Assembly (NCBI GenBank): GCA_038087875.1
Contig: CM075995.1
Coordinates: 10,542,001 to 10,606,000 of the forward strand
DNA: 64,000 nucleotides
From: Malacoraja senta
Taxonomy: Eukaryota
Direction of reading: 5' to 3'
Positions 2,224 to 39,953 of the stretch are shown here, in pieces. The notes under the pieces are model-generated. The model was not told the origin of the DNA. It did not search any database and saw only the letters and a list, made by a program, of their open reading frames with translations. The position numbers were made by a program, and so were the translations under genes. Every line of letters starts with the position of its first letter. The stretch's first letter is position 1.

Positions 2224-3065
2224 ATTTGCGGCGGCACGGGATTACTGCAGTGGCCCCTACAGCCTGTCTGTCTTTTTTTTTATTTTTGACTAGTTAAATG
2301 TAGTTGTTCGTGGGGTTTTTTGTACTGCTTTTAACTGTGTATATGTGGGGTGGGGAGGGGGAAACTTTTAAAATATCTTCCCTGCACGGGTGACCCGACC
2401 TTTTCCCTGTCGGGTCTCCATTGTCATTGGGGCCTAGCACCGTGGAGCGGCCTCCAACCGGAACGACCAGGGGGCTCCAGTTGCGGAGCCTGCGGAGCTG
2501 CCGACTCACCATCGTGGGGCTGGCTGGCCTCGGAGCGTGAGGAGCGGTGGCGGCGCGTTGCTGCTCAGTCCGGAGCTCGGAGGCTCCAGCTGCAGCTGCA
2601 GACAGGTGGACTGTGATATCGGGAGCTCGCGGGTCCGGGCGAGAGACCGCTTTCCGGAGCTCCCGCAACGCAACTTCTCCAGCCCGAGTCGCGGGGTTAG
2701 AATGACCCGGAGCGGGGCCGTACTTCGCCCGGTGCGGCTTTAATGACTGCGGGACATTCCAGCGCCAGCCGTGGGCTCCAACGTGTGACTTTTGGGCCGG
2801 GCGCGGCCTCAACGGCCGTGGGACTTAACATTGCCCCCTGGGGCTTCAACATGGGGGGAAAATGGTGCAGGGGAGAGAAAAGACTTTGCCTTCCATCACA
2901 GTGAGGAGGAGATTCACTGTGATGGATGTTTTTCTGTAAATTGAATTGTTTGTGTGTCGTGTAGGAATTGTTTTGTTTGTATGGCTGTGGAAACGGAGTT
3001 TCATTTGAGCCTCTCTGAGGTTCAAATGACAAGAAATAAAATCTAATTTTGTTTTCTTTTTTTTT
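2224..3065 (+). mobile_element. GC-rich non-coding SINE-like retroelement inserted in DIRS
   Basis: Interrupts YR. Has the shared hairpin at 2888-2928 and a 3' stem-loop at 3001-3029 followed by AATAAA. Confidence 0.7.
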
Positions 3066-3735
3066 CGTGTGCTTCGGCCTGGGAGAACTTGTGTTAAAGA
3101 TATCCTTTATAAACTGGGTATCAGAGGGTGAGACCCGATAGAGTGGGTCCCGCTCGCTGCAGGAAATATGATGTGAAGGCCCGTTGGGCTCAGTTAATGG
3201 TTTTATAAGTTAATTTATTGTCAAGGACCCATTTGAAATGAACTCCAAGACTCAGTAATCCGTGCCGTATTATATGTAACATAGTATTTAAACAAAACGC
3301 TTCCCATCTCCTGAAGAGGAAATGTACTGATTTTTTGGTGCTACCTCTGCACTCTGCAGTGAGCACATACATGGATCGGTCTGACAACCCGAGCCGTAGG
3401 AGCAGTCTTCTTAGAGTCTGCAAGTCAATGAATTGATTTTATCATGCAGGGGCTGGTTACCCGGGGCGCAGTCTGAACCAGCACATTTTTATGTTTAGAA
3501 TAACCATATAAGTTTCTATCATATTCCCTACATAAGCGGGAACCATGGCTGCATAGGCCAGTCAGACAGTACGAAAACCCCTGAAGCGGGATCTTGCAGA
3601 ATTTATTGCAAGACCCGACTGATGAGGCAAAATAGAGAAAAGACATAAAAGAACATTCCTCCCTCGTGTAGCGAGAATGTATCTCTCGCCACTATGATCC
3701 ACGTATTTTTGCAACCGGTGAATGTAAACACTACC

Positions 3736-3807
3736 TGCTGTGACTCGGATCCCAACCGAGGTTGCTGTGGCCATAGCGCAGAGTACTAACCACTATACGA
3801 TTACGGC
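3736..3807 (-). tRNA. tRNA-His-derived copy, probably a pseudogene (anticodon reads ATG)
   Basis: Minus strand GCCGTAATCGTATAGTGGTTAGTACTCTGCGCTATGGCCACAGCAACCTCGGTTGGGATCCGAGTCACAGCA (72 nt), about 7 changes from vertebrate tRNA-His-GTG as recalled. Two acceptor-stem mismatches and an altered T-loop. Confidence 0.85.
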
Positions 3808-4971
3808 CACACAATTTATCTGTGTGCTATCTGCGCCGAGCCTGGATACAAACATATCGATATTTGGTGTTCCATTGAGCCATAATGTCATAAAATACTT
3901 TGTGATCCAACATCCATTCTGTGTTTTCATTGATTTTACGTGATTATACACCACCACCAAATGAGGTTAGGTAAATATGATAGGATACTTTGACTGGATT
4001 GCACCCATGTGACTAACATATGCCACCACCACAGTGTATCAACTTGGAATTGAGCATGCAAATTATGCATATTCGCACAATACCCCTTTAACACATAGAA
4101 TGCACATAGTGTCTATAGATAGTTGATACCAATAACTGGAGAATTGGTAACTCATGCAAATCCCTTCTGCCTGCGTGACTAGAGATGGCATTCGTAATTT
4201 TTCATCTTTGAGCACTAGCATCAGTTTGTAATATAACTGAAGATTTAGTGACCAAAACCTACTGGAGCAATGCTGAATACTGTTCGTCCACCATAGTGAC
4301 TTTGGTAGCTTCAGCTGGTAATAGCATAGGTCTGTTAACGATGACCTACATGGCACCTGAGAGGTTACTGCTTTGCACGTTGTAAGTTCTGATAATGCAA
4401 AGGTCCAATTTGCACAGCTGAAACACAGCTGCTATATTGCCAATTACACTTGATGAATAGAAGGCTGCTTCATAACAACAAGGTTGTTACAGGCTTCTAT
4501 TGTTTACACTTTCTTGCCCCAGGCCGAAGTCACAGACAAATTAATAATTAAAGGTAAATCCCAATAATCAATAACGCTAGTTGGTATCAACTTAAATTTA
4601 ACTGGATGGTTGAGGAACCTCAATTTCTCAATTATAGTTTGCGGCTGAAACTGTTGATTTTAGCAAAATACAGCATTTGGAATATCCAGGTAAGCCAGAA
4701 TAAGTGATTTTGAGCTTTTTTCAGTCCAAGCACCGGTTTAGTAATTTGGTAAATAACCTGGGAGCTGAAGTTAGCCCATTTTGCAACGCTTTAACTGTTA
4801 TCATTGTCCCATCCAGATAAATTTCAAATGACTCCGGTGATCCCAGAAAATGGAAATCAGTTGTTTAACAGTAACGAAGTTCCATATTCTGAAAAGTCTC
4901 TGTTGCACATGCGAGTTAAATCAAAGATGAACTGACATCCTCCATCGTTCACAATGAACAGGCCACACCTG

Positions 4972-5232
4972 CCATAATTCCGTGCCTACCTCGAACGATA
5001 ATTCTGACCAGATTCCCGAGCCTGTCTCGAAAGGTACTGAGCCTGCCTTGAAAGACAACTCTGGCCATAATTCTGGGCATGCCTTGAAAGACAATTCCGG
5101 CCATAATTCTGAGCCTGCCTCTAAAGACAACTCTGCAAATATTTCCGAGCTTGTCTCGGAAGGCAATCCTGGCCTAATACTGAGCCTGCCTCGAAAGACA
5201 ACTCTGGCCCCAATTCCAAGCCATGCTTGGAA
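4972..5232. repeat. 36-bp minisatellite, about 7 degenerate units, inside DIRS
   Basis: Variants of CCATAATTCTGAGCCTGCCTTGAAAGACAACTCTGG. Confidence 0.85.
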
Positions 5233-6800
5233 CCCTTGTATACTGTGCAAAATAAACCAATCACATGTTATCATTTTAGTTTATAAACGGATCTGAATCT
5301 CATGTTATCATTGTCATTTGTACAAAACACAAGTGTAAATATTACCAACTTGTAAATGGTCCACATACCCCATGTTTCGGAAGAACCAGACCCACCTACC
5401 TCCATGGTTACCGGTGGTCTTATGGTAAGCCCAAATGCCCCTGATGCGGGTTCTATTCCCGTCCTTGATTGGAGAGTAGGACTGGTCGTGTGTGTGTACT
5501 CATATTTCCTGAGACCGGCATGGACCTTGACCTGAAAGACCTCAGCCCAGCTTTCAAGCTGACTCCAGCTTCAGTGAACTGCTTACTGCTGATGAGGTGG
5601 GAGGGGGTGTCGTTGGTACCTTGATTAGTCCGACAGCTTTTGCATCCTCATCCAGTTATACCTGTTGGATAAGTCTTACCTGAAGAAAAGCTTCGGCGGC
5701 TGGTTTCATTTCTCCAATGTCACCCCTGATAGCGCTATTCACTGTCAGCCGTGAGGGGAACTCTGGCCCCTTCCGGGTTTTCTGCCCATGGCTGGAACTA
5801 ACTCTTCCGGCAGTAACCCTTCGTTTGCGATTATTTCCTTGGAACCATATGCATGTGCTCCAGTATGTTCCACGGACATACTTCGAATTTGAAGTCAGTT
5901 ACACATTGACCACTCACACTCCCCTCCACAGAGAGGGAGATTCATAGGCAGCCCTGAAAACAGGTGCTGCCGCAGGCCCCTGAGGATACCTGCGCTGATA
6001 CGGCCCCTCCCACGGACCTATATCAGGATTTTTGCTCTGTCAGGCAGGAACAGACCCCGAATGCTCCCCTCATCAGAGAGGGAGACATTGTGCAGCCCTG
6101 AAACAGGTGCCACTGCCGTGGGGCCCCGAGGAGTCCCGCGCTGATAACTGCATCCTTTGGAGTATATCATTGTGGAGCAACCTCTCCATCAGGTGCTCCA
6201 TGTGGGTTTAGACGTCAGCAGACGCTACCCATTGAAGGAGGGAAACCTCCTGGCCCGACTCATCCGAGTCCAAAGGCGTGACCGACTTACTCCTGGCTTT
6301 CCCCTATTTCTGGGGCACCATAGCTGTCTTGGAGCCGCTGACTGCACTGTCAGCGACTCGGGTGGCGAGACCAACTTACCCTTGGTTTTACCCCCGTTCT
6401 GGGGAACCATAGCGGTCTGGGAGCCGCTGACCCCATTGTCAGCGACTTAGGTAGCGAACCCGACGGCCGCAGGCTACCCGCGCTTCCGCGGTCCGGACCA
6501 GGATCCTCTTGCCCCAGGGTCCATAACCGGTTTCCCCGTGGCCCGTCCGGACTTCGCCCCGAAATCATCCATCAGGAAGAACTCTGTAAGAAGAGTTTCC
6601 TGCAAGAAAAAACAGAACCTGGAAATAAGTTTAAACTTACCTGCAGGTTTAAACTTACCGCTGGAAGGAGCAGGGCGCCTGCCAGTCAGTCGCTGCGCCA
6701 TGCACAAGGCGTAATGACATGCATGCGCACTGGCGGGCACTTCTTCATGGAATCACTCACGTAACTCCGAAGTAAAATACCAGACCACAATCCTACATGC

Positions 6801-7148
6801 GAAGATAGACACAATCTGCTGGAGTAACTCAGCGGAACAGGCAGCATATCTGGGGAGAAGGAATGGGTGACGTTTCGAGTCGAGACCCTTCTTCAAACTG
6901 AGCGTAAGGGGAGATGGAGACATAGAGATATGGAAGGGTAAGGTGTGAAAACGAGAAATCTAAGGTGATGAAGCTCAAGGAAAATATAGAATGGAGAATC
7001 CAACTTGCATCGGTAATTCTTAATAAGCAGTGCCTTAGAGGTCTTTAAGAGCAATCTGAAGAAGTGTTTCGGCCCGAAACGTTGCCTATTTCCTTCGCTC
7101 CATAGATGCTGTTGCACCCGCTGAGTTTCTCCAGCACTTTTGTCTACC
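6801..7148. mobile_element. Penelope-like pseudo-LTR fragments in inverted arrangement, with hammerhead cores
   Basis: TAGACACAATCTGCTGGAGTAACTCAGCGG is inverted to CCGCTGAGTTTCTCCAGCACTTTTGTCTA. TGAAGA..GAAACG cores at ~6867-6896(-) and ~7056-7083(+). Confidence 0.75.
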
Positions 7149-20897: not shown

Positions 20898-22544
20898 TCC
20901 TTAACACACTTTAAATATATCTTCACAATTCCTAACTATCAACAATTTGTACAAATATTTATTATACACAAGTTAACTTGGAAGAGAATATGTACACTTT
21001 GATTTAACCAGCACTTATCAATATGAGGTCCTGAATTTAGTAATTTTAAATGAAAACATTTTCAGCTCGTTTTTTTTCTCTGTCCAATTATTTTTAGTAA
21101 GCAAGTTCAAATTCAAATTTTTACGCAGACATCTTTAGGATTATGAAATCCTCAGGATTGGTTAAAGTATTTTCGGCCAATTTATACTTTAACCAGTACC
21201 TTTATGAGACTCCTCACCCTGTTTTTACAGAGATCCAGATAATCTCACACAGGCGGGGACTTGAACCACATAGGCTCACCCTTGCGAGGGCCTCTTTCTT
21301 TCCACCTGCTTGGTACAGGGTGTCAGCACGTAATGGCTTCACGCCGATTTTTATAGTGCCTTTCCAATTCGCACCCCCTGCTACGACGCAGTAATTTGCC
21401 TCTTAGTACTGTTTAGACCCAGTCCTGTTTTCCAATATCCAGCCAATCGGATATCCAAGTCTGGGCAGGGCCTCAAACCACTGTTATTTTCGATGTCAGG
21501 CCAACTCAATGGTACCTAACGGTTAGATTTTGCAACAATGCTGTCGACTTAGTTTTTATGGGACCTCGAACCCCTGGGAAGGGAAGGGCTTCGAACCCCA
21601 AAAAGACAGGAACACCCTCAGTTGCTAGACTACTGTTTTACGATCTCGTTGGGAACCCCAACCCACGTTCATGAATGATCGATCCGCTCTGACTAGCAAA
21701 GTGGGAAAACCAATGTGAAAACTGCACCATGGCGCCGATTTCTTCCCTTGTAATTGGGAACAGGTCAACACCCTCGATCGCAAACTTGTGTCTGGGGGTC
21801 TGTTGAGCCCCCAATGTAATGATGCTCCTAGAGCTAACCCCCTTCGTTTAGTTCAGTAAAACACGGAGTCAAGCACTGCACCACTAAATCTTTTATTTTA
21901 TGAAACAACAACGAATTCCCTATACGATACCTAGCCACACCGCGGGATCAATCCTTGTCTTTTCTTGTCCAAGCCCTTCAGCCTCGTGCAAGCAGATACT
22001 TCAAAAAGGTTATGCAGTCCTCCTCCAGAAGATTGATAACGAACCTCGTGGGGGTTACCTTTTATAGGTCATTGAACGCTGTGGGGCAAGATCTACATGG
22101 GGATGGTACCCCTACAAACCAATCACAGATATCGATTACATGAAAGTGTTATTGACAATTCCCCAACCCAATTACAAAGCTCCCCATTACAAAATATTTC
22201 TACAGAAGCTTCTGGAAAGAAGTCAGTTGACCCAAGTAACGCAACATTCTCCTGGGGAGTATAAACAATTCAAACAAGGCTTCACACTTCAGCCAATCAT
22301 CAAACAGTAACACAAACATCTTGCAACATTATTAACAGTATTTACAATCCTTCTGTAGCCAGCCTATCATGCTAATGCACTTGCAACACCTTTGGGTTTC
22401 TCTGCAAATACTCATACATTTTAACAATAGAAAGTTCAATCGAGGATCTAGACATCCTGGCACCAATTTACAGCATTCAGCTTTGCACAGAAAGTCAGCA
22501 GTACTATGCAAACTTGGCAACGAAATTTCTAGGTCCCTACCTGG

Positions 22545-23375
22545 TCGGTGAGGCAGCTTTTTCTCCAGGCTGCCCTGTCGACACGTCCTCGTGGCCTACC
22601 AGCGGGCCTGGAGCGCCGTTTCCTGGCGGGGACCGCCCCGCACCTCGGCTTGGTGGCGGCACAGCGCTGGAGTGTTGACGCGGAGCGGAGCGGGCGATGC
22701 CTTGCCTGGATCGGCGCGCTCGACTGACGCGCCGGAGCTCCGTAGATTGTGACCGCCGAGGTCAACATCTCCGGGCTGCGGGACTGCGGAGAGGATCGGG
22801 CGGCGCCGACTTTTACATCGGGAGCCTTGGAGCTCCAAACCGGCGCGGCCTTGTCGGCTTCGGTAGCTGCGGCCTCTGTGAGGAATGCGCCCGTTCCAGG
22901 TGGCCCAGCCGCTGAGAGGACTCTCCCAACGCCGGGGCAACATCACCCGGTGAGAATGGCCAGGAACATCGGGCCTCCATAGAGGCAATAGCGGAGGCCT
23001 CATTAGGCCTGACTTTGGGTGAACTGGGGTTGTGGACTGGACATTGTGCCTTCCCCCACAGTGGTAATCATTGTGGGGGGATGATTTTTGTGTGTTGTGT
23101 CTTGTTAGTCTGTGTTCAAGATGGCGGTCGGAGGGGAGAGTGGACGCTGGCGCGGTTTAGCCGTTTCCTGGCGGGGACCGCTGCTCTCTCCTCAAATTGT
23201 GTTTCTGATTTTCTTTTTGTGTCTTTGGAATGAATTCTGTCCTTAATTTGCGTATTGGTCTTTATAATTTATTTTATTCCGATTATATGTTTCTTATTTG
23301 TCAATCTCTGTAAGGTGTCCTTGAGACCTCGGTATAAGGCGCCCGTAAATAAAAGTTATTATTATTATTATTATT
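22545..23375 (+). mobile_element. GC-rich SINE-like retroelement with L2-type (TTA)n tail
   Basis: Hairpin 23048-23083, AAGATGGCG ~23118, ends GTAAATAAAAG(TTA)n. Confidence 0.75.
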
Positions 23376-23694
23376 CTATTGTCAGGAGTCATTGGCCTTT
23401 CCTTGATTTTAGTTGTGTGTTTTATAAAATTGTCAGTTATATCAGATTTGGCATCGAGCCTCTTTTCTTAAACAATGTTTTCTCATATTAAATATACAAT
23501 GTAGGGACTTCCGGTGGCGCCATGTTGGACTGAACAGGCGCTGCATTTAGCTCCGTGCCCGTAATCGGCGAATTTTCGCTTTAAAAATCGATTGGAAGTC
23601 GGGTCCGTGTGTAATAACATCAGCTGCTTGTCGCGGTGCTGATGACGTCATCAGAAATCGCCGCGAAAATAACGGAGGTTTAAGTTATCTTTAA

Positions 23695-24762
23695 ATGAAA
23701 AAAACGACTCCCTGTCAGAGCCCTCAGAGATCTGTCTCCAAGCAACTTTTTAAAATACAGTCACTACCTGAAAAAATTCAAGAACCTGAAGAAGTAACTG
23801 CTGAACTTCAAGAACCTGAAGAAGTATCTGCTGAATTAGCTCTGAAAATGACTACAAGATCAAAGGCTGAAATGGCTGAAAAAGTTTTAAAAGAAATGGA
23901 GGAAATTAAGATATCGGCCAGTGACTTAAAAAATGAACTTTTGGCAGTTAATAAAAGTATGATGGAGAGCATGATGCAGAACATGAACGTCGGGAATCAG
24001 AAAGTTATTGATTTAATCGATAAAATAAATAAACGAATAGACGATGTTCATGGTGAATTATCTTTGAAAATTGATAAGGTCGAAACAGACTGTACTAGTA
24101 AGTTGGATGTGGTCCACCAAACTGTTAGAACATGTTGTGCTACCATGAAAGATATGGAAATAGCAATGTTACAAATGGCTGAAGAAATGCAGAAAATCAA
24201 GAAGAATTATGAAGATGTCGTCGGTCAGCTGACCAAAACGTCGGATAAATGCCTTGACTTGGAAGCAAGGTCAAGACGGCAGAATTTAAGAATAGTTGGA
24301 GTGGCAGAAGGGGAAGAGGGGAACGATCCCCAAGAGTACACTGCTAACTTACTTAAAAATATACTCAACCTGCCAGCTAAACCGAAAATAGAAGTGGCAC
24401 ACCGGGCGAATCGGCCAAAATCGAGGGCACAAATAAGAGGTGCTCCCCCACGACAGATCATTGTGAAATTTCAGGACATTTCAGCATTGGAAGAGGCCAT
24501 GCGAAAAATACAATATGGAAAGATTATGAAGTTTGGGACGAACACTATCAGACTTTTTAGAGACTATCCTTATGAAATTGCTAAAAAACGAGAAGCGTTT
24601 AAAAATACGCAACATATCTTGAAAGGGCACAGGGAAATCAGATATGGAATAATTTATCCTGCTAAGATGATCATTACTTATAAGGATACCGAACGCAAAT
24701 TTACTGATCCAGAAGCTGTTTACAAATATGCTCAAGACATTGTAAAAGAAATAGAGGCTTAA
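23695..24762 (+). CDS. L1 ORF1p (coiled coil, RRM, CTD), intact, 355 aa
   Basis: DLEARSRRQNLRIVGVAEG, IEVAHR, PRQIIVKF, YGIIYPAKM. Confidence 0.92.
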   Translation: MKKTTPCQSPQRSVSKQLFKIQSLPEKIQEPEEVTAELQEPEEVSAELALKMTTRSKAEMAEKVLKEMEEIKISASDLKNELLAVNKSMMESMMQNMNVGNQKVIDLIDKINKRIDDVHGELSLKIDKVETDCTSKLDVVHQTVRTCCATMKDMEIAMLQMAEEMQKIKKNYEDVVGQLTKTSDKCLDLEARSRRQNLRIVGVAEGEEGNDPQEYTANLLKNILNLPAKPKIEVAHRANRPKSRAQIRGAPPRQIIVKFQDISALEEAMRKIQYGKIMKFGTNTIRLFRDYPYEIAKKREAFKNTQHILKGHREIRYGIIYPAKMIITYKDTERKFTDPEAVYKYAQDIVKEIEA

Positions 24763-27437
24763 GCAAAACATCACATCCTCAAGACAAGGTTTTTATTCTA
24801 CAGACAACAGCTGAGGGAAGGTCGATAGAAATAACTTTTTAAACTCTTTAAAAAAGGATTAAGATGGCGCAGCTTCTCCATGTGCAGCTGTCTAGACCCT
24901 CTTATCTTCTCAAGGACAAATTCGGCTTCAACATGAGCGAAAGATGAAATAACAAGGGTGTGGCTGAATGAGCAACCTAACGAAGATGGATGGGGGGGAA
25001 AAAAATCCTGAATGAAAGACTGTTAAAATGTTATCCTTACACTAATTCCATACTAACACAAAAATTACTGAACTAATATAGTTATAGTAATTAATGTTAT
25101 TGAAATTAATACACTAACAGTAATAGTAATTGATTTAAAACTGAATTGCTTAACTGATAAAATGTAATAATTCATTGCAAGGATTGACCCCCCCTCCCCC
25201 CTGGGTAGGGGAGGAGGGGGGCTAAATATCAGTAAATAGAATTTCAACAGACTAACAAATTAATTTAGAAATTATGATAAGTTGTAGTTCAAATCTTGTG
25301 CGGAAGGAGGTGAGGAGATTCAGAATCTTGGCAAATAGCCAGGTGCCTGAATCGGGTTAACCCCTTCCAACCAAAGGCAGATTAGTATGGAGGAAGAAAA
25401 TGTAATAATTGTTAACATAAGTGAATGGTAGATAAGCTTGGAGATTAGAGAAGATTTATTTAAATATAAAGATATGGTAGATACGGTAAGGCTGACACAT
25501 AAAATTTGGCTTTGAATGGGTCCCAACTCCCTTTTGTAAGATTATTCAAGGGAACGGAGCTAAATGTAGATTAGCAACTACGGAAGTCATTAATTGTGTA
25601 ACTACCACCATTAGGTGGATAATTGGTCACAGTGTCGTCATTTTTAGACACTGTAACCTCACTCTTTTGATTTTTTTTTAATGTCACAATAATGTACACT
25701 TTTTTGTTTCTTTACTTAAGGACAATTTTGAGAGGGATGTAATAATTGAATTTAATATTGCAAATGCTCGCCCAACAGCCAGAGACCTAAGGTATTGTTT
25801 GCACCACATGTTTAAAAGGTAGTAAACAATTTAAAATGCAAGACGATATACAAAAGAAATTTGGAGGAATCACATTCTGTAGTTGGAATATTAGTGGTGC
25901 TAATGAACCAATTAAAAGGGGTAAGATTTTTGCACAATTGAAGTCACTCAATTCGGACATAATATTCCTACAAGAAACTCACTTGAAACTGCAAGCTCAA
26001 GCCAGATTGAAGGCAAACTGGATAGGCCAAACATACCAATCTTCATATATTTCCAAAGCTAGAGGCACAGCAATCATTATTCGAAAAGGTATACCATTTA
26101 AATCGAAGAATATCGTGACAGATAAGGAAGGGAGATACCTTATAGTTACCGGAGAGATTCATGATACCCCAATCACCTTGGTAAATATTTATGCGCCTAA
26201 TTTTGATAATCCTCAATTTTTTAATAACATTTTGAATATAATTACAGAGTTCAATTATCAAAATGTGATAATTGGGGGAGATTTTAACTGTGTTTTAGAT
26301 CCATATTTGGATAAATCTTCACAACAGAGTAGGGGCAACATAAAATCTAAAACCAGGGAAATCTTAAATACTTACATAAAAAATACAAATATAACAGATG
26401 TTTGGAGGATCGCTAACCCTGTCAGAAGGGAATACTCGTTTTATTCAATGGTACACAAAACGTATTCACGTATCGACTATTTCTTAGTCGATACAAAACT
26501 AATTCCCTATACAATGAACCCAAAATATCACAATAGTATAATTTCTGATCACTCCCCGTTAACTTTTTTTTTTTAATTAGAAGGAATGCCTTCTAATAAA
26601 TCGTTTTGGAGGTTTAATCCTCAAATCTTAAATGATCCACAAGGGGAAATATATTTAAAACAGATGGAACTTTTTTTTAAGAATAATGATACCCCAGATA
26701 TTTCACCAGTTCTGCTATGGGAATCATTCAAAGCAGTTATTAGAGGATCTATAATCTCATATCTAGCCTTTTTAAATAAAAGGAATAAGAAAGAACAAAA
26801 GCAGTTAGAAGAAAGGATTAGAGAATTGGAATTAGATAATGCTAAAGAGCCTACTATAGACAAATATAATAAAATAACAATAATGAAATTTAAATTAAAC
26901 AAAATATTATCAGCAAATGTTATTAGATTATTTCAAATCACAAAACAGGAAAATTTTGAATTTGGGGATAAACCACACAAGCTTCTGGCTCGACAACTGA
27001 AAAAACGGGAAAAGGACCACACGATTTTAAGGATTAAATCAAATAAAGGGGAATTGTTAACACTACCTAAGGATATTAATAAAAGATTCGCTCAATTTTA
27101 TCAAAATCTATATACATCTAAAGCGGTAGCAGATAGTACTAAAGTTAGAGAGTTCCTGGATAATTGTAAGCTCCCAAAACTCAATGAGAGTGAACAAGAG
27201 GAATTAGGTGCACAAATCTCAACTAAGGAAATAGAAGAAACAATAAATACATTAAAGAATGGAAAAACTCCAGGACCAGATGGTTTTAGTAATTAATTTT
27301 ATAAAAGATTTTACGAGATAATTACACCACGACTACATAAAATGTATACATATGCTTTTAAAGAACATACACTTCCAGAAACACTGGCGGACTCAACGAT
27401 TACACTAATACCTAAAAAAGGTAAAGATTTAGAAGAT

Positions 27438-27917
27438 TTTTTTTAGATTTAGATTTAGATTTAGATAGCCCTTTATTGTCATTCAGACCGAAGTCTGAAC
27501 GAAATTGCAACAGTCATACATAAAACAACAATAAACACATTAACATCCACCACAGTGAGTCCACCCAACATCTCCTCACCGTGATGGAGGCAAAAGTCTT
27601 AGGTCTGCAGTCTCTTCCCTCCTCTTCTCCCTCTGCGCTGAGGCGATACCCCCCGGGCGATGTTACAAATCAGTCCCGCGGCTCAAACACGCCCGGGGTG
27701 GTCGAAGCTGCCGCCCACCAGTCCTGCAGACGCAGCCGCTCACCCGCGGCCGAAACCCGGACTCAGGCCACCACCGCCAGAACACCGTCCCAGCCACTCT
27801 CACGTGAGTACCGTGCCATCTTCAGCCTCGGGCAGGGCCGTCCCGACATGGGCACCGAAGCTCCCCCGGGCCGGGCCACCCCGACATGGGCGTCGCTTCT
27901 TCCCCGGGCCGGGCCGC
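27438..27917 (-). mobile_element. GC-rich SINE-like retroelement with (TCTAAA)n tail, inserted in L1 ORF2
   Basis: Splits DLED|PGSYR. Carries the shared hairpin at 27544-27591. Confidence 0.85.
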
Positions 27918-28622
27918 ATCCGGGCTCTTATAGAGCTATTGCGCTGTTAAATACAGATCAAAAAATATTAGCGAAAACATTAGCTAGAAGGCTAAGTAAC
28001 TATGTCAGTAAATTAATAAATCCGGATCAAACAGGGTTTATACCCAAGAGATATTCAAGTAATAACCTGAGACGTCTGTTTAATATAATGCACTCACATA
28101 AAACCGAAGAGCAAGACTTATCAATTATTTCACTGGACGCAGAAAAAGCATTTGATCAAGTGGAATGGGATTATATGGTTAAAGTATTGCAAAAATTTCA
28201 AGTGGGAGAGAATTTTATCGCTTGGGTAAAATTATTATATGACAGGCCTACGGCCAGAATATTAACTAATAATATCTTGTCCTCGAAATTTCAGTTATCA
28301 AGGGGAAATAGACAGGGGTGTTCATTATCACCTCTGCTATTTGCTCTTGTAATAGAACCGTTAGCGGAAAGTATTAGGATACATCCGAATATTCATGGGT
28401 ACAATACAAAATATTCAAATAATAAGATATCTTTATATGCAGATGATGTACTACTCTATATATTACAAAATCACAAACTAGTATACCAAATATATTAAAT
28501 TTAATTGAGGAATTTGGATCCTTTTCAGGATATAGAATAAATTGGAATAAAAGTGAAATTATGCCGATTAAACCTCAGGAATCGACACACCTGTTAAAAT
28601 TCCCTTTTAAAATCGCCTTAGA

Positions 28623-29092
28623 TATGACGGACATAGCACACCTTGAAGAAATGAGACTCCGCCTAATAGATAAATATGACCAATTCTTAAGGAGTTGGTC
28701 ACCTTTCATCGACTTTTTGGAATCATGTGATGCAGCAGTACCGTAAAGATTACTGATTTCAGGTCAGGTCGTGGATAGATTTACATCTCCTAACAAAGAT
28801 TTGAAAATTTCTTTTTTAAGGGTCTTTTTTTACTATTTCTACTTTCTATTTTTTCTTTTCTTATATACACACTTCACGTTTTTCTATTTTCTACTATTTA
28901 TTTTTCCTCTTTCTTTTCTCTATTTTTTTTTTTTTATTTTTTTATTTTTTACCTCCTTTTCAAAAACATAAAACTAGAGGTTGTACATAGAATGCATTAC
29001 GTTATGACAGTTGGCACCTAAAATTAGGTGCCACTGTATTGATTTGTATTGTATTAACTTCTAATAAAATAAACATCAACAAAAAACAAAAA
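28623..29092 (+). mobile_element. 3' fragment of a second L1 nested in L1 ORF2
   Basis: 14-bp TSD AAAATCGCCTTAGA (28609-28622 / 29093-29106), A-rich tail, ORF2 end WSPFIDFL. Confidence 0.92.
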
Positions 29093-31099
29093 AAAATCGC
29101 CTTAGAAAAATTTATATATTTGGGAATTGAAATTACTAGAAAATATAAATCTCTATTTAATGCAAACTATATGCCCTTACTCAATAAACTAAACACACTT
29201 ATTAAATTCTGGAAAACCCTCCCGATATCTCTTAGAGGCCGAATAAATGCTATAAAAATGATCTTTTTACCACAAATTTTATATCTATTCCAGTCAATAC
29301 CGATATACTTACCAAAAATTTTTTTTTTAAAATTGGATGCTGATATTACAAATTTTATATGGGACTATAAATCCCACAGAATCCAAAGAAAACATTTGTG
29401 TAAACCTAAGGAATTTGGTGGATTATCACTCCCCAATTTTTTATATTATTATTGGGCCACAAATGTCAAAAATATGATTCACCTGTTGGACAATTCGGCC
29501 CAGCAGGTGGATTGGATAGTAATGGGGAGAGAGAGGACTGCTCCCCTTTTAACATAGGAGCGATCCTTCTCTCACCAACAAAAATAAAGATTACAAGACA
29601 AAGTAAAAATCCAATTATTCACAATACAATTAGAATTTGGAAACAAATAAAATTAACGTTAAAATTAAGAAATCTATCACTTCTTTCACCTATAATGAAT
29701 AACCCTTCGTTTAAACCCTCTATGATAGATAGAGCTTTTATTAATTGGGAAAGAGTAGGAATTAAAACGTTTGGAGATATGTATGATAATGGACCATTTT
29801 TTAACATTTCACCAATTACAACTTAAATACAACTTGAATAATAATCAATATTTTAAATATTTCCAACTACGTGACTATTTGAAAAAGTATACACGAGAAT
29901 ATCAAAATATGTCTCCTGACTTATTAGATGACAATATAAAAGCGGAATCAGCTAATTTAATATCATACCTATATAATTCCATTTTAAATATAGAAATTCC
30001 ATCATCGGACGGGATCAGAAGAGAATGGGAACAGCAATTGGCTATAAAAATCTCGAAAGAGAGTTGGGATCAACATCTATTATATGTGCATAAATGTTCG
30101 ATTAACGTAAGACATACTCTGATTCAATTTAAAATTTTACATAGATTATATTATTCAAAAGCTAAATTAAGTAAATTTTACCCAAATACCTCTGCAAACT
30201 GTGATAAATGCCTAGTCCAAGAATCAACTATAACACATTATTTTGTTTTTTATATAAAAATTCAAAAATTTTGGAATGAAATTTTTGAAATTTTCACTAA
30301 ATTATTTAAAATAAAACTGAAACCGAATGCAGAACTGATTATTTTTGGAACAATAGAAGCAAGTTTGGAGCTGACTTCGTTTCAAAGGAGTTTTCTTAGT
30401 TATGGCTTAATAACGGCAAAAGAATTAATACTGAAATTTTGGAAAAATGCTCCTACGCCAACAATAAAAATGTGGACTTCTAATATGTCGGAATTGTTAC
30501 ATCTAGAAGATATGAGATTCCTCCTAGCATGTAAACAAGACCAATTCCAAAAGATTTGGTCTCCATATGTCGACTTATTACAAACATAGGGTGCAACAAA
30601 ATGATGATAATAAATGGATTTAGGTCCTGGCGAGGGGTGAGTAAAGATATGAAGTAGGTGCATCCCTTTCATACGGTCCTATCTTATTTTCTTTTTTCTC
30701 TTTTTTTTCTTTTCTTCTTTAACTACTTCATGTGGTTTAGGTTCACATGTGTGTTCCTGGACCACTTTTTCATTCACTCACTGACTGTCTTTGCTAGCTC
30801 TTTCTATCCTTTTTTCCTATTAAAGTTGAAAAACAGAAGTGGTACAAGAACTGTATAAATTTACGTTATTGCAGATTACTGTAATGTAAAATACTTCTAA
30901 TAAATTAAAAATATATATATATATGTATATACACAATGTATATAGTAAAGAAATAGACTACTTAAATTGTCTCTATTTCCTAAATTCCTTTTAGAAATGA
31001 CTGTATTATTTCTTAAATTTTTGTTAGAATAAAATAATTAACTATTTCATTCTCACCTTTTTATCATTACATGATAACATTCACAGTCCTTGCTATCTA

Positions 31100-32439: not shown

Positions 32440-33197
32440 AGGGGGGGGGGGGGGGGCGCTGCGAGACGGCTGCCCTGCCAGCAGCGTGTTCTTTATTTCT
32501 ATTTTTTGTGTGTTTTTTGGTGTGACTAGTGTTAGTTTGGGTGTTTCTCAGTATGTCTTATGTGTGGGGTGGTGGGGAGCGGTAAGGGGGAAACCGCTTT
32601 CGGCCGCCTCCTCCACGGAGAGACGACTTTTTCCATGTTGCCTCCCTCGCGGCCTAACACCATGGATTGGAGCAGCATTTCCTGGAGTCGGGCCCGGAGT
32701 CGGGCATCAGCAGCAGGCGCAGTGTAGACTTTCCATCATGTGGTGGGCGAACCCTTGCCGGGGCCAGAAGGTCTGCAGAGGTTCTAGCCACGGCCGGGGC
32801 ATGGACTTACCATCCGGAACCTGGGATCCCTTGCCGGGGATCGCCGGAGAAGAGCTCCGACTGCGGGCCTGCGGCCTATATAGCATCCAGAAGCCGTGGA
32901 CTCCGGTAGGAAAGTGCGGATCCGGGACCTCCACCAAGTGTGTTCCACCGCCTGTACATCGGGCTGTCTGTAGCGGCGACTACGGAGGGTCTATGGCCTT
33001 GACCACAGGTGAACAAAGGAGGAGGACTGGCTGAACTTTGTTGCATTCGACCACAGTGAAGAATGCTGTGGTGGATGCTTCTGTTAAATTTTTATTGTGT
33101 ATTGTGTGTTCTTTTTAAGTGTATCGCTGCTGGCAAATTTATTTCACTGCATGTGATGTGCATGCGATGAATAAAATTGACTTTGACTTTGACTTTG
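32440..33197 (+). mobile_element. GC-rich SINE-like retroelement with (GACTTT)n tail
   Basis: Same layout as 2224-3065. Hairpin 33043-33077. Confidence 0.75.
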
Positions 33198-33453
33198 CTC
33201 TGCATTGTTTAACTCTCTCAGTTGGATTTATATTGCTCATCCTTCCTCTTCTTAGCCTCAGCTCTTTCCCTTCTTTTATCTCATCTTCCTTTTCAGTCTC
33301 CGAGTTGCTATCAGTATCATTTTCTTCTGGGAGTGCTCTTCCCTGTAGGGGTGCTGCAGTCCCCCTTTCTACGGGATCTTATATGGGGGAGGTGGTCTAC
33401 ACTATTCCCGACTTTGTTCCTCATCCCCCTCTTCTATAATCAGGGTCGCTATG

Positions 33454-35060
33454 TGTAGATGAGATATGCATGTGCCTTTTTAGCAGCAACAACCATGGAA
33501 GAGACCCAGCTGGTGGGCTCGACGACCGCCTTTAGGACGCCCATTTGTACCATACTGTGTAGGGTCGCCTCCACTTTGTCCCTCATGGCGAAGGAGATAC
33601 GGTGAGGAGCATGGACCACAGGAACAATCTTATGGTCCACTTCAATCTTGTAGCTGCAGGGTAGTTTGCCTAGCTTATCATCAAAGCGGTCGGGATAATC
33701 GGCCAGCGGGTCCATAAGAGCCTGCACCTGGTGGATGTCCCGGTGGAAGGACACCAGTCCCATTTCCTGGCATGCCTGGATCCCCAGCAGGGGAACGCAT
33801 CTTCGATTGAGGAGAAAGAAGGTGAGGGGCCGAGTGGTCTTCAGTATCTTACAGTGTAGTGTGGCCTTGCCCACAGGAGTAAGGATCTCCCCACCGTAGG
33901 CATGCAGGTTTGAGCTCTGAGAAAATATCTGCTCATTAGTTCTTATCTGGTTGAAAAGGGATGTTGACATAACATTGGTAACCGCCCCAGTGTCGATTTT
34001 GGCCGTGAAGGTCGAGTTGTTCACAGTGACTTGCACAGAAGGATCCGTTATCATAGCAGGTGCGTCCACCACGGTAAACAAGCTGGTCTCCCCCTGAGAG
34101 GAGTTAGATGTAGGAACAGAATGTTCATCGGAATAGTGCTGGGAGCTGAGCTCATTATCCGACTGTAGAAGGTTGTTTAAATTTTGCCTTCGAGCAGCGA
34201 CAGGCTTCCCACGGGAATGACAAGCTGCAGCAAAATGGTTCAACTTATTGCAGGAATTGCAAGTTTTCCCTAGAGCAGGGCATACATTGAACTGATGAGT
34301 TGTCCGTATGCAGACCACTCCCGGTCACTCCAAGCTCGCTACTGTCGTCGGCTCTGCGGGGTCGCCCAGGTCCTATTTCGTCGACTATGCTGGGACCATT
34401 TACCGACGGTCCCGCCAGCACCTTCGGCTCGTCAACGAGCCGCGTCCTCCTGCCGCCGATCCCTTTGCTCCCCCGCTGCCTGTTTCGCGTCCGGCCGTTG
34501 CCCTGCCCGTGATTCCTGACATGCCTCGCTCTGCTCCTCCTTCGCCCCTTCCGCTCCATCACACTCCGACTAGTCCTCGCTCGCCCGCCCGCGCTCTTCC
34601 CGGTCCCGGCCCCGCATCCCCTCCGGGTTTGGTGCCGCGGTCTCTTCCGTTTCCTCCCGTTTCTCCCTTTCAGGTTCGTCCGTCCCCGCTGGTGCCTCTT
34701 CCTCCTGCAGGAAGGGTGGATGGCGAGACGCGGACCCGGGCGGGACGTCTTGTCAAACCGCCTGACCGCTATGGCGATGTTGCCTAGCTATCCTAGCGCA
34801 TGAGCCGTGGTCGCCATGTCACCATTGTATTTGCCTGTCGTTTCGGAGAGGAAGGATGTAGATGAGATATGCATGTGCCTTTAACATAGTGACCTCATAC
34901 CTACTAACCACTCCCCATATCACAAGTATAACTACAACCTCCCCACCCACAGATCGCTCTCTAGTTCCTGTGACAGACCACGTACAGCTAGTGCAATGTA
35001 TAATGATCCAGTATGAATAAAGATAGTAAAGTAACGATGCCTCGTTATCAATCCTTTACA
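33454..35060 (+). mobile_element. Rearranged Gypsy LTR retrotransposon
   Basis: TSD CTATG (33449-33453 / 35061-35065). Right LTR 34857-35060 follows PPT GGAGAGGAAGGA. Left LTR is only ~25 bp. IN tail on +, gag-PR-RT piece on -. Confidence 0.88.
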
Positions 35061-35698: not shown

Positions 35699-35901
35699 CA
35701 TAGAAACATAGAAAATAGGTGCAGGAGGAGGCCATTCGGCTCTTCGAGCCAGCACCGTCAATCATTGTGATCATGGCTGATCGTCCCCTATCAATAACCC
35801 GTGCCTGCCTTCTTCCCTTATCCCTTGACTCCACTAGCCCCAAGAGCTCTATCTAACTCTCTCTTAAATCCATCCAGTGACTTGGCCTCCACTGCCCTCT
35901 G
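35699..35901 (-). mobile_element. HER1 3' fragment
   Basis: CATAGAAACATAGAAAATAGG tail. Confidence 0.9.
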
Positions 35902-36145
35902 TCATTCCCTCCCTCAACTCTCCCTTTTCGCACTCCCACACTAAACACAATGTTTAAATAACATTTGTTCTCCACCCCTAACCCACTCATTGCACAGGCT
36001 GGAGCTTATCCCAACACTGATCATTGCCAGTTGAGATCCCATTGTGATGTCATTGTTCACAGCAGCGTATATAATTGAGATCCCATTGTGATTGGAGGAT
36101 TGTGAGATGCCATTGTGACGTCATGACTGGAAACACAGGAGGGGG

Positions 36146-36148
<3 letters not shown>

Positions 36149-36210
<62 letters not shown>
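36149..36210. repeat. (GA)n microsatellite
   Basis: About 30 pure GA units. Confidence 0.97.
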
Positions 36211-36215
<5 letters not shown>

Positions 36216-37597
36216 AAAGAATATAGACACCACTCACCCGGGGGCAGCGTCGGAGGAAAGTTGTAAAACGCCAATCAATCCTTCCCATGTGAAAACCTCC
36301 ACCACCCATCCCACTCCCACAAGGAAAGTTCTGTAAATTAAACCGCTCCCCTTTACCCCCCACAATGAAAACCCCCACATGGGGGGTTGGGGCGACGTCG
36401 GCGCTGACCTCCCCCCACATCCCCCCACATCCCCCCACAAAGAAAGTTCTGGAAATGTAACCTCTCCCCTATTACCCCCCACAATGAAACAGGGAAGTCC
36501 CCCCATCCCACCCACCCCCCTCCCCACAAGGTAAATCACAAGTTTTTTGAGTAAATATAACCTCTCCCCTATTCCACCCCCAAAATGAAAATCTTCCTCC
36601 AAAGAAATCAAAATGAGATTCCATAGTGATGTACCCATTCCCCCAATGCAATCCGTTCCCCCCAATTCCACCACTCACTCATAGCCCCCAACTGCACAGG
36701 CACAACTCATACACTCCTTCCCCCTCATCTTCACCCTCGCTCTCCTCTCCCCTCTCCTGCTCCAATCCTCCACTCCCTTGGTCACCTCTCCCTCTACTTT
36801 TCCCTACCCTCAGTCACTCCATCCCTCACCTCTCCCCTTTCGCACTCCCCCACTAAACACAATGTTTAAATAACATTTCTTCTCCACCCCTCCCTACCTC
36901 TCCTCTCAACTATGCAACAGCTTATCCCAACACTTTTGATTGGCAGCTGAGATCCCATTGTGATGTCATTGACGGACATGGCAGCGTATGTAAATGAGAT
37001 GCCATTGTGATTGGAGGACTGTGAGATCCCATTGTGACGTCATAAGAACAAACTGCCAGAATCTCACATCAACTATCAGATCATCTGTCAAATTATTGTC
37101 CTCAAAATGGTTTATTTTTTATGTTTAAATTTTAATAAGGTGAAATATAACATCAAGCTAAACAAAACTACCATGGGACATAGGTGAGTGGTGGTGCAAA
37201 AATGTTCGCGCTACCGTGTACCATTTTGCCGTAGGTCCCAGATCACATACATATAGAAACAAACAAGATGCAAATTTTAGCAGTCTACTAGACCAACTAG
37301 TCTACAGGAGGCATGGTCCCCCAAAGTAATACACTACCACTCCCCCATAGACCACACGGGAGGCCTGGACCCCCAACGCAACCCGTTCCCCAAGGCAATA
37401 TTCCACCACTCACCTGTTTCCCCAATGCAACCCGTTCCCCCAACGTAATATTCCACCACTGCGCAGGGGTTGATTATTTCGCCTTATTCAAAATTCAGTG
37501 TACTGTGACTTTAAAACATTGCAAAAAAAAAAGCACCCTCCCTCCATGCTGCCAGGAATATGCTTGATACTTGCTGAAAACTTGCTGGAAGGAGTAA

Positions 37598-38143
37598 AGG
37601 CTCTGTCTCACGGTGTTGCGGTCATTGGCGGTAAAGCGCGGCGTCGCCGGAAGAGGGGACTGCACGTCAACCCCGAGAGCGCCGAGTACGGCCGGTCCCA
37701 CGAGCTTGCGGTGTTATAGAAAATAAAGCAAGCGGGGCTGTGGCGGCGGTAGTGCTGATCGCGGCGCCCGTGCCGCACACGTGCCTCACTGGCGGAGGCT
37801 GTGGCGGTGACCGTGCCACACACGTGCCTCACTGGCGGAGGCTGTGGCGGTGACCGTGCCGCACACGTGCCTCACTGGCGGAGGCTATGGCGGTGAGAGT
37901 TCCACTCACGGCGCTCGTGCCGCACTGGCGGCAGCTGTGGTGGTGACCGTGACGCACTCGTGCCTCACTGGCGGCGGCTGTGCGGTAAGAAATTATTTTT
38001 AAACAGTGCTGACTTTTTGTGGTCCCAACACCGCACGGCCTCGGCGGTGGGCGTTTGACCGAACCTGCGGTCTCTGGCGGTCCACGAGCGGTAGTTACTT
38101 CCTGTATCACCGCCAATGACCGCAGACTGGTGAGACAGGCCTT
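37598..38143. mobile_element. PIF/Harbinger-type MITE with an internal 43-bp tandem repeat
   Basis: TAA flanks (37595-37597, 38144-38146). Imperfect ~35-bp TIRs. 43-bp units 37770-37985. Confidence 0.78.
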
Positions 38144-38186
38144 TAAGTGTTCCTCGATTGCAGCTTTATTGCAATCTGGGAAAGGG

Positions 38187-38364
38187 ATAGAGAGAGAGAG
38201 ATAGAGATAGAGAGATATATATGAAGAGAGAGAGAAGTAGAGAGAAAGATAGAGAGAGATAGAGAGAGACAGAGAGAGACAGAGAGAGAGATAGATAGAC
38301 AGAGAGAGAGACAGAGACAGAGAGAGACGGAGACAGAGACGGAGAGGGAGAGGGAGGGAGAGAG
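38187..38364. repeat. Compound GA/GATA/GACA microsatellite
   Basis: Purine-rich simple repeats. Confidence 0.9.
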
Positions 38365-39108
38365 AAAATATGTGAGTTTTAGTAATATAATCGGCCATGT
38401 GGGACCCACTGGGCCCCGTCCCCCAACGCGGCACACGGGAGGGCTGGTCCCCGAACGCAGCATCAGTGCTCACCCCGGAGACAGGCGCCCCCGGAGCCAA
38501 TCACCCCCATCACCCGTTCCCCCAACGTAACCCGTTCGCCCAATGCAATATTCCACCACTCACCCATAGTCCCCAACTGCGCAGGCACGGCTCATACACT
38601 CCCTCCCCCTAGTGTTCACCCTCGCTCTTCTCTCCCCTAACCTCCTCCCCTCCTGCCTTCACCTCTCCCTCCCTCTCCTTTCCCCTACCCTCAGTCACTC
38701 ACTACCCTCAGCCTCAGTCACTCCCTGCCACCCTCCATAACCTCTCTCCTTCCCTACCCCCCTAACCCGTTGGGCCCCGTTTCCCCAACGCAATTTTCTC
38801 CCACTCACCCGTTTCCCCAACACAACCCGTTTCCACCACTCACCCGTTCCCCCAACCACTCACCCGTTCCCCCAACGTAATCAATCCTTCCCACGTGGGG
38901 GTGGGGGGGGGGGGTAGTCGGCGCTTCCTGGAGCCAATGCACGGACTCGACTTTTGGTTCGGTGCCGGCCTTGAGCCAATCAATCCTTCCCACGTTAGGG
39001 GGAGGGCAAAAATGTCACTCTATCCTTACCCGCCTTGAAACTGATAATCCCATTGTCTCTCTGTCACCTCTGTCACCTCTCTCTCCCTCTACTTTTCCAT
39101 AACCTCAG

Positions 39109-39603
39109 TTACAGAGAAGGTTCACCAGACTGATTTCTGGGATGTCAGGACTTTCATATGAAGAAAGACTGGATAGACTCGGCTTGTACTCGCTGGCATT
39201 TAGAAGATTGAGGGGGGATCTTAGAGAAACTTACAACATTCTTAAGGGGTTGGACAGGCTAGATGCAGGAAGATTGTTCCCGATGTTGGGGAAGTCCTGG
39301 ACAAGGGGTCACAGTTTAAGGATAAGGGGGAAATCTTTTAGGACCGAGATGAGAAAAACATTTTTCACACAGAGTGGTGAATCTCTTGTATTCTCTGCCA
39401 CAGAAAGTGGTTGAGGCCAGTTCATTGGCTATATTTAACAGGGACTTAGATGTGGCCCTTGTGGCTAAAGGGATCAGTGGGTATGGAGAAAAAGCAGGTA
39501 CAGGATACTGAGTTGGATGATCAGCCATAATCATATTGAATGGCGGTGCAGGCTCGATGGGCCGAATGGCCTACTCCTGCACCTATTTTCTATGTTTCTA
39601 TGT
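39109..39603 (+). mobile_element. HER1 3' fragment
   Basis: Near-identical to the reverse complement of 15660-16150. Confidence 0.93.
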
Positions 39604-39953
39604 AAAGTAAAGTAAAGTAACTTTATTTATATAGCACTTTCAATCAATACAATCACTGAAGCCAAAGTGCTTTACAGAGAAAATTATCCAAAATAAATGA
39701 AAAAAAGAGGTAGAAAAAAAAGACACGAAACACTATTAGAGATTCAACGCAAACATCCCCCCACAGCAGAGTCGACACTCTCCACTGTGAGGGAAAGGCA
39801 CCAAAATGTCCAGTCCTCCTCCTAGTCCACCCGAGGTCGGGGCCAGTTTGAGGCCTCCGCAGCCAGTCGCCGCAACGGCAGCCCGATGTTGTAGGCCCAC
39901 CTGCCGGGAAGCTGTAACACCGGCATCGGGTGGAAAGTCCTCAGCGGCTTGGT
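39602..39953 (-). mobile_element. GC-rich SINE-like retroelement with L2-type (TTTAC)n tail
   Basis: Minus-strand AAAGTGCTATATAAATAAAGTTAC(TTTAC)n. Shared hairpin 39754-39799. Confidence 0.75.

Follow-up and report, generated by a model that had tools for sequence, protein, structure and literature searches.

Probable composite non-coding retroposons sharing a putative cis-acting RNA hairpin in Malacoraja senta

What kind of mobile element carries one short hairpin at five places within 64 kb, and what might the hairpin do there? The question arises from a window of Malacoraja senta DNA (the whole 64-kb stretch analyzed here), in which an initial annotation had described a hairpin common to five GC-rich, non-coding retroelements, here called E1 to E5. 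All five core hairpins were found at the positions and on the strands given for them (Table 1). The pattern as first written, with NN before GGATG and NNN before CAC, fits three of the five copies, and all five are recovered if spacings of 2 to 3 nt are allowed. When the window was dinucleotide-shuffled locally 200 times, neither version matched, against five real matches for the relaxed one. A covariance model trained on E1 to E5 returned only these elements on the sense strand of the window, at 51 to 71 bits, a match by construction; the best score elsewhere was 16 bits. Each core folds into the claimed hairpin (z −2.5 to −4.8), with a loop of about 5 to 17 nt. No Rfam family reached its gathering score anywhere in the 64 kb, and a relaxed threshold over E1 gave only matches with E > 1 (best E, 1.4). 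Scanning viral, metagenome, and prokaryote collections with the pattern gave 2, 15, 0, 20, and 17 loci, all 54 at or below 21.5 bits with the model. We regard these loci as chance; none of the 17 listed retains all three variable pairs.

Table 1. Positions of the five elements and their parts in the window
Feature	Position	Strand	Basis or remark
E1, complete 847-bp element	2219..3065	+	empty-site joints; sits in DIRS-like tyrosine-recombinase frame, no target-site duplication seen
E1 head, Rex1-5'-end-like	2227..2258	+	loose end at 2246 (58 contigs); by-eye comparison with Rex1 starts
E1 5' block: hairpin A 2350-2385, hairpin B (pyrimidine loop) 2389-2419, GGCCTA motif 2431	2350..2450	+	folds, homology
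E1 core hairpin	2888..2928	+	motif, fold, covariance model
E1 tail: terminal stem-loop 3001-3029, AATAAA 3035-3040	3001..3065	+	loose end at 3047 (35 contigs)
E2, 5'-truncated inside 5' block, composite 3' end	22531..23375	+	5' boundary approximate
E2 core hairpin	23048..23083	+	motif, fold
E2 second LINE-head-like module, AGATGGCG at 23119	23116..23200	+	
E2 tail: L2-like stem-loop, then (TTA)n	23309..23375	+	L2 label by resemblance only
E3, 480 bp, probably 5'-truncated, antisense in L1 ORF2	27437..27916	-	second L1 copy
E3 core hairpin	27544..27591	-	motif, fold
E3 tail: UUCG stem-loop, GACAATAAA, (TCTAAA)n	27437..27500	-	
E4, 743 bp, probably near full length, head-like 5' end after G run	32455..33197	+	boundaries inferred
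E4 5' block: hairpins A and B, GGCCTA motif	32566..32670	+	folds, homology
E4 core hairpin, one G-G mismatch	33043..33077	+	fold, pairing count
E4 tail: stem-loop, AATAAA, (GACTTT)n	33132..33197	+	
E5, ~350 bp, 5'-truncated, tail to tail with CR1 3' end	39602..39950	-	
E5 core hairpin	39754..39799	-	motif, fold
E5 tail: L2-type stem-loop, then (TTTAC)n	39602..39676	-	

Read on the sense strand, 49 of the 50 stem cells pair (43 Watson-Crick, 6 G·U, 0 A·C, and 1 mismatch). The G·U pairs would be A·C on the antisense strand, in agreement with the proposal that the hairpin forms in the sense RNA. Covariation between the stem halves, also claimed, is no more than suggestive: three cells change on both sides, and the signal is not significant with five copies (32 of 500 shuffles scored as high). 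The hairpin might be kept by descent, or for a role at the DNA level (as an inverted repeat or a site for a factor), while the RNA structure itself is under no selection. Common ancestry of the elements fits descent, while the four of ten stem pairs that are invariant across the copies, together with the nonsignificant covariation, resemble conservation of sequence rather than structure. The arms also contain CACAGTG/CACTGTG, which we take to be the RAG heptamer. However, six G·U pairs against no A·C pair favor one strand, spacer length varies widely, and two stem columns vary on both sides. The hairpin flanks are inverted, not direct, and therefore do not form a transposon footprint. We consider maintenance without selection on the RNA improbable, and infer that the core hairpin probably acts in cis as an RNA element. 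Comparison with known consensus features led us to drop hammerhead and HDV-like ribozymes, a Transib/RAG footprint, a microRNA precursor (stem too short), and a terminator-like hairpin with a U run (U run not conserved).

Outside the hairpin, the bodies had been called divergent. This did not hold: for 5 of 10 pairs, the alignment of the 150-nt stretch just 5' of the hairpin scored higher than every one of 500 shuffles (z 11.2 for E4-E5), and E1, E2, and E4 have in common another conserved block with hairpins, close to the 5' end (z 3.4 to 8.0). The bodies form two subgroups, E1 with E3 and E2 with E4 and E5. Likeness between subgroups is patchy; upstream similarity was not significant for E1-E2, E2-E3, or E3-E5, and mid-body alignment of six pairs gave nothing convincing (best z, 2.4). 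The elements have CpG observed/expected ratios of 0.7 to 0.94, versus 0.55, and contain GACT 29 times in sense and 5 times in antisense orientation (10.9 expected) and ACATCG 5 times (0.18 expected). The core hairpin is the most conserved part of a larger homologous body. The best reading is that E1 to E5 represent four or five families, if not more, of one non-autonomous retroposon group, 750 to 850 bp long when whole; E2, E3, and E5 could be 3' pieces of longer elements.

Outside data, in the form of contigs, set both ends for E1 only, E2, E3, and E5 being truncated. Empty-site joints pass from 2218 to 3066-3079 in all four runs, skipping 2219-3065 or nearly so, and the host frame, presumably DIRS-like from its motifs, is found on either side. 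The 1,001-bp E1 stretch, host flanks included, collected 4,458, 10,033, 6,495, and 300 contigs in the four runs. At its 5' end, E1 fits GGCGGCGC-N-GCAGCGGC, a sequence present at the start of 5 of the 19 skate Rex1 consensuses and of none of 5 skate L2 (by eye; several rows are 5'-incomplete), and by eye this end also resembles stingray Rex1 5' ends. In hairpins A and B, the family-majority letters at 2375 and 2391 convert mismatches to pairs, and other copies of E1 end in (CTAAT)n. E4 has a head similar in type to the LINE head of E1; roughly 1,000 consensus rows, each compared over its first 400 nt, hold no close match to it. In the second module of E2, 23160-23181 is an exact 22-nt copy of 22615-22636. 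E3 inserted with no duplication, as the second L1 copy runs from 54791 to 54789 across the gap, and its target site resembles its own tail repeat. Summed contig depth was 8 to 16 times the median of other element bins over the core and 4 to 6 times over the 5' block in four of four runs, a hint only, as contig depth cannot rank parts. None of the 40 best-supported differences listed (144 further) falls within 2858-2958.

That the elements have no tRNA head was confirmed by ARAGORN, which found no tRNA gene in any of them, with full scope for E1 and E4 (E2, E3, and E5 are without 5' ends). There was no A/B box pair at exact spacing and no B box in E1. The sense bodies hold 14 runs of at least four T, at which RNA polymerase III (Pol III) should stop. 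From the Rex1-type 5' end of E1, the elements look like LINE-headed, Pol II-type composites and not headless SINEs. Their non-autonomous, non-coding character was likewise upheld, E1 being complete at 847 bp with no open reading frame above chance (longest stop-free sense frame, 101 codons, at shuffle level, 568/1000). Pfam gave no match for three long frames over E1, E2, and E4, and no autonomous Rex1 or L2 was recognized in the window. The 192-codon open sense frame of E4, which runs from the head to just before the hairpin and was equaled in 4 of 1,000 shuffles, could mean that the elements encode a small protein from a start codon in the head, like HAL1 or HeT-A. Against this, the frame was one of 10 tests (significance about 0.04 after these), its best Atlas score was 0.80 (low recognition), and no such long frame exists in E1, E2, E3, or E5 sense; we give a small protein very little credence.

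The tails are those originally listed, (TTA)n, (TTTAC)n, (TCTAAA)n, (GACTTT)n, and a stem-loop with AATAAA, and all five elements end in a LINE-type stem-loop plus tandem repeats. The idea of several LINE partners survives as two tail classes, not as five partners. The tails of E1, E3, and E4 we take to be Rex1-type; those of E3 (z 6.7) and E4 (z 4.4, 1/500 shuffles) resemble that of E1. The E5 tail shares flanking words with the 3' end of L2 from a bivalve, as aligned in a published study. The split is not clean, because E2 and E5 tails show no significant likeness (z 1.3) and E3 and E5 tails reach z 3.2 across the supposed classes. The comparison with autonomous consensus sequences (PMC13343379) covered the first 400 nt of each. 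L2 recognition of a stem-loop plus tandem repeats has been described (PMC2653535). E4 and E5 share a body and have different tails (z 1.6), which points to tail exchange; the modular organization first proposed is supported.

The body and hairpin might instead belong to an autonomous Rex1 or L2 lineage, as its native long untranslated region (UTR); E1 and E4 would then be internal deletions, and E2, E3, and E5 truncated or chimeric. Some elasmobranch Rex1 do have spare non-coding length: ScyCan_Rex1-3 is 3,777 nt long with a 1,009-aa ORF and a GC-rich leader, of which a 13-nt word recurs in E2 and one of 12 nt in E1 (words chosen by eye after viewing). The core also lies some 70 to 130 nt from the tail in four elements, in the range of a 3' UTR. 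Yet one core precedes L2-type and Rex1-type tails alike, E2 has no coding remnant over about 850 nt, and a 600-nt body is too big for skate Rex1-1, -2, -8, and -12, where at most about 250 nt lie outside the ORF. Four words from the 3' arm/loop side of the core are absent from all consensus rows (first 400 nt), and typical Rex1 do not show the E1-E5 body within their first 400 nt, although long-leader Rex1 exist. A UTR origin is in our judgment unlikely, though it deserves some weight.

SVA and LAVA are long, GC-rich, Pol II-type, non-coding, modular passengers, VNTR-based and mobilized by L1 via poly(A), whose modules are joined by splicing. The elements here differ in having no such VNTR and no poly(A) dependence. 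Splicing together of modules, with the 5' arm of the hairpin as splice acceptor, would fit the pyrimidine-rich stretch followed by CACAG in four of five copies and the alternative upstream sequences that, in each of the four runs, contigs join to E1 at 2860-2885. The AG, however, lies within the stem and is GG in E3, homology continues upstream across the supposed intron side, and none of the 15 joints listed (55 further) ends at 2901-2902, which leaves a splice acceptor highly improbable.

The explanation that we favor, with somewhat more confidence than doubt, is that E1 to E5 are Pol II-type, non-autonomous composite retroposons, mobilized by the CR1 group and built of a LINE head, a GC-rich structured body, and a LINE tail. 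A LINE-derived 5' head would be followed by a T-rich tract, paired 5' hairpins with GGCCTA, the GC- and CpG-rich body, and the core hairpin; 3' of this would come a TG-rich linker, a LINE-derived terminal stem-loop, and a short tandem tail. The Rex1-type head would direct transcription by RNA polymerase II, and the non-coding RNA would fold the core hairpin on the sense strand, as the pairing suggests. A Rex1 or L2 reverse transcriptase would then recognize the borrowed 3' stem-loop and repeats and insert copies, often 5'-truncated and without duplication, to judge from the insertion anatomy. Tails, whose swap is evident for E4 versus E5 and E2, may be exchanged when templates are switched within the TG-rich linker immediately 3' of the hairpin. 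The signal recognized by the reverse transcriptase is not the core hairpin, as every element carries a terminal stem-loop of its own. Tentatively, the core hairpin could be a protein-binding RNA element that aids an unspliced, non-coding Pol II transcript in survival, nuclear exit, or joining LINE particles.

Of the two marks of a canonical SINE, the LINE-derived 3' tail is present and the tRNA, 5S, or 7SL head is absent from E1 and E4. Conserved-domain SINEs (CORE, V, Deu, Meta, Nin, Ceph, and UCON3; V-SINE HE1 in sharks and rays) likewise keep a conserved middle module across families, and are known to have exchangeable LINE-derived tails and several LINE partners (PMC5786205, PMC11481361, PMC7245038, PMC3747384). 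The elements here differ in having no tRNA/5S/7SL head, in their Pol III-hostile T runs, in their 750- to 850-bp length, and in a LINE-type 5' end; HE1, unlike them, combines a tRNA head with a CR1 (HER1) tail. Exact-word searches of three supplements gave no relevant match to named SINE domains. Bipartite non-autonomous LINEs (Bov-A, RIME, NARTc, RTE-N, and Vingi-N) also join LINE 5' and 3' ends without an ORF and are presumed to be transcribed by Pol II; only RTE, Ingi, Vingi, and R2 were listed as producers in 2018 (PMC5786205). Here an autonomous-LINE 5' end was recognized for E1 only, by eye against Rex1 starts, and the ends are Rex1- and L2-type, with about 600 nt of GC-rich structured body between them and tails that differ within one body group. 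The bird elements BuceSINE and ManaSINE2 are also non-autonomous, with a GC-rich part of unknown origin and no small-RNA head (PMC4844689), but theirs is a GC-rich head with bipartite RTE tails, whereas here the GC-rich part is internal, behind a LINE head, and the tails are of the CR1 group. Autonomous ray and skate Rex1 and L2 are 3 to 4 kb long with an endonuclease-reverse transcriptase ORF starting near the 5' end, which these elements lack.

The literature searched, with most subscription papers and Repbase Reports outside its coverage, gave no description of such elements among the first 20 to 30 matches listed where there were more. They may, at somewhat less than even chances, represent an undescribed ray and skate superfamily of Pol II non-coding retroposons with LINE promoter heads, a multi-hairpin body, and Rex1/L2 tail exchange, the core hairpin being a new cis-acting RNA element absent from autonomous LINEs. 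If so, the core would be the Pol II equivalent of the domains conserved in SINEs, and Rex1 would be added to the few clades from which bipartite passengers arise. The origin and function of conserved SINE bodies are called unknown in the conserved-domain SINE literature; the persistence of a single short, foldable core in many diverged families that have no Pol III head would open its role to testing. The elements could also spread CpG islands through ray genomes, and they may be annotated automatically as Rex1 or L2. They are abundant: the five make up about 5% of the window, and thousands of contigs were found in three runs.

All five hairpins that the initial annotation had reported in non-coding retroposons (E1 to E5, in window order) were present as described. 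A pattern with 2 to 3 variable bases matched the five and no other site in the window, and it had no match in 200 local dinucleotide shuffles. A covariance model built from the five hairpins found no sixth copy in the window. Each core hairpin folds (z, -2.5 to -4.8), and over ten core pairs in five elements 49 of 50 cells pair, 43 as Watson-Crick and 6 as G·U. Since there are 6 G·U and 0 A·C cells, pairing points to the sense strand; the elements are related families, not independent ones. Two stem columns change on both sides, and as many did so in 32 of 500 shuffles, so the covariation of stem halves proposed earlier is not established. We consider a DNA-level or neutral origin of the core less likely.

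Retroposons and neighboring features, in window positions
Feature	Position	Strand	Remarks
E1	2219-3065	+	core hairpin 2888-2928; tail, stem-loop and AATAAA
E2	22531-23375	+	core hairpin 23048-23083; tail, (TTA)n
E3	27437-27916	-	core hairpin 27544-27591; tail, (TCTAAA)n
E4	32455-33197	+	core hairpin 33043-33077; tail, (GACTTT)n
E5	39602-39950	-	core hairpin 39754-39799; tail, (TTTAC)n
Duplication in E2	22615-22636, 23160-23181		exact, 22 nt; E2 body and second head-like module of E2
G run	32440-32455		about 15 G, directly at apparent E4 5' junction
L1-like element	23500-30600		near full-length; 355-aa first ORF, broken ORF2
Second L1-like copy	52470-54920	other strand	partial; about 80% alike to the 23500-30600 copy
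Tx1-like and Gypsy-like coding remnants (presumed clades)	47895-50340	-
	33449-34800, 41379-42300, 59845-63012
Another non-coding repeat	35892-36132, 36804-37156, 39966-40289		three copies, 71-83% alike; repeated GAGATCCCATTGTGA words
tRNA-His call	3736-3807	-	ARAGORN
Minisatellite	1-600		period ~47 nt
Minisatellite	4944-5245		period ~36 nt
Minisatellite	37732-37982		period ~43 nt
Minisatellite	42704-43154		period ~41 nt
Minisatellite	55257-55457		period ~32 nt

The bodies had been called otherwise divergent, and the elements proved to be closer kin than that. When the 150 nt 5' of each hairpin were compared, hairpin left out, five pairs scored above all 500 shuffles (E2-E5, z 15.1; E4-E5, z 11.2; E2-E4, z 6.9; E3-E4, z 6.2; E1-E3, z 4.8). 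E1-E4 was equaled in 3 of 500, and similarity in the other four pairs was not significant. The alignments gave two subgroups, {E1, E3} and {E2, E4, E5}. E1, E2, and E4 have another block in common close to the 5' end, a pyrimidine-loop hairpin followed by GGCCTA (z, 3.4 to 8.0); the 5' hairpins alone fold modestly (z, -1.0 to -2.0), and the three-way alignment is poor. Family-majority letters at 2375 and 2391 of E1 each convert a mismatch to a pair, and they make up two of the three listed family differences in 2345-2420. In both E1 (2350-2419) and E4 (32566-32646), the pyrimidine loop of hairpin B is complementary to a purine run in hairpin A, and the two may form a kissing loop; in E1, the family-majority letter at 2375 would pull part of this run into the stem. 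Middle parts of the bodies did not align between elements. On their sense strands the bodies are rich in G. Two words picked after seeing the sequences are enriched: GACT occurs 29 times on the sense and 5 times on the antisense strand (expected, 10.9), and ACATCG occurs 5 times (expected, 0.18). GGAC[TA] presumably fits the m6A consensus, as a lead only.

Parts of E1 were found in 20 listed runs from 14 studies, each with less than half of the E1 words. Contigs from four of these runs, representing four organisms, covered 30 of 30 E1 bins each, and all four contained joints from 2218 to 3066-3079, the empty site. By these joints, E1 is an insertion of 847 bp and belongs to a multi-copy family; it lacks a target-site duplication. 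At loose contig ends, other family copies carry a (CTAAT)n tail, and different upstream sequences join the core at 2860-2885. Joining of modules via splice-acceptor capture is less likely. E3 is inserted in L1 ORF2, also without duplication, at a target resembling its own tail repeat; the second L1 copy runs unbroken across the gap. E2, E3, and E5 seem to be truncated at the 5' end. The start of E4 resembles a head, and we infer both ends of this element. E2 could be dimeric, or it could consist of a body fused to a separate L2-tailed passenger.

As had been noted, the tails differ, every element having its own terminal stem-loop and repeat. E1, E3, and E4 share one tail type (E1-E3, z 6.7; E1-E4, z 4.4; E3-E4, z 1.8), which we presume to be Rex1-type. 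The split into two types is not clean (E2-E5, z 1.3; E3-E5, z 3.2). E4 combines the E2/E5 body with the E1/E3 tail type, indicating that tails were exchanged downstream of the core. The E5 tail has the same flanking words as an L2 3' end shown in the PMC11481361 supplement.

A tRNA search of the five elements gave no match, as expected from the earlier report of no tRNA head, nor did an Rfam search; T runs in the bodies argue against Pol III. The E1 family starts with GGCGGCGC, ten bases, and GCAG. By eye, in the PMC13343379 supplement, the form GGCGGCGC-N-GCAGCGGC was seen at the start of 5 of the 19 skate Rex1 consensus rows, of 2 among the 10 listed stingray Rex1 rows, and of none of the 5 skate L2 rows. 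Coding sequence directly follows the head in these autonomous Rex1 elements; E1 has none there. In the main rival reading, the body and the core may both come from the UTR of an autonomous lineage. Long-leader Rex1 elements occur in catshark and skate, and one has short words, picked post hoc, in common with E1 and E2; however, in a comparison that covered the first 400 nt of each consensus, typical skate Rex1 leaves no room for the body, and the core stands before two tail types. It is less likely that the elements encode a small protein. A stop-free frame of 192 codons in E4 (32456-33031, +; 4 of 1,000 shuffles, one of 10 tests) begins at the head, stops just short of the core hairpin, and has a hydrophobic start, but it is not protein-like and has no Pfam or Atlas support.

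The feature is real, and it is better supported as a modular non-autonomous group than when first proposed; a structural and functional role of the core is a proposal. E1 to E5 share with conserved-domain SINEs a common core and exchanged tails but, unlike these, have no small-RNA head. They resemble bipartite non-autonomous LINEs, which PMC5786205 gives for RTE, Ingi, Vingi, and R2 only. No description of such elements was found in the papers searched; sequences this abundant are probably already in automatic libraries as Rex1, L2, or Unknown.

The data show how the elements were inserted, that E1 is non-coding, that the core pairs on the sense strand, and that shared bodies end in unlike tails. 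Passengers with LINE heads are presumed to be transcribed by Pol II (PMC5786205), and a LINE-type head would drive Pol II transcription here. Rex1 and L2 would be the mobilizing partners. According to PMC2653535, L2-type enzymes depend on terminal repeats and recognize a stem-loop at the 3' end, and tail exchange is explicable by template switching. Here such switching may have occurred within the TG-rich linker. The core hairpin is not the terminal recognition signal. Its role is the weakest step: we favor, at less than even confidence, a protein-binding element that would help to stabilize the non-coding RNA, export it, or load it into particles.

The window is repeat-dense animal DNA in which Pfam finds reverse transcriptase, endonuclease, and protease domains. 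We assign its repeat pieces, presumptively, to CR1-, L1-, Tx1-, DIRS-, and Gypsy-like clades; presumed CR1 3' ends are numerous throughout. Such CR1 ends, together with the match of the E1 head to skate and stingray Rex1, suggest that the DNA comes from a cartilaginous fish, probably a ray or skate. The tRNA-His call has no relation to E1 to E5 and probably marks the head of a tRNA-derived SINE. Copies of the GAGATCCCATTGTGA-bearing repeat adjoin C-rich repeats at 36633-36832 and 38512-38715.
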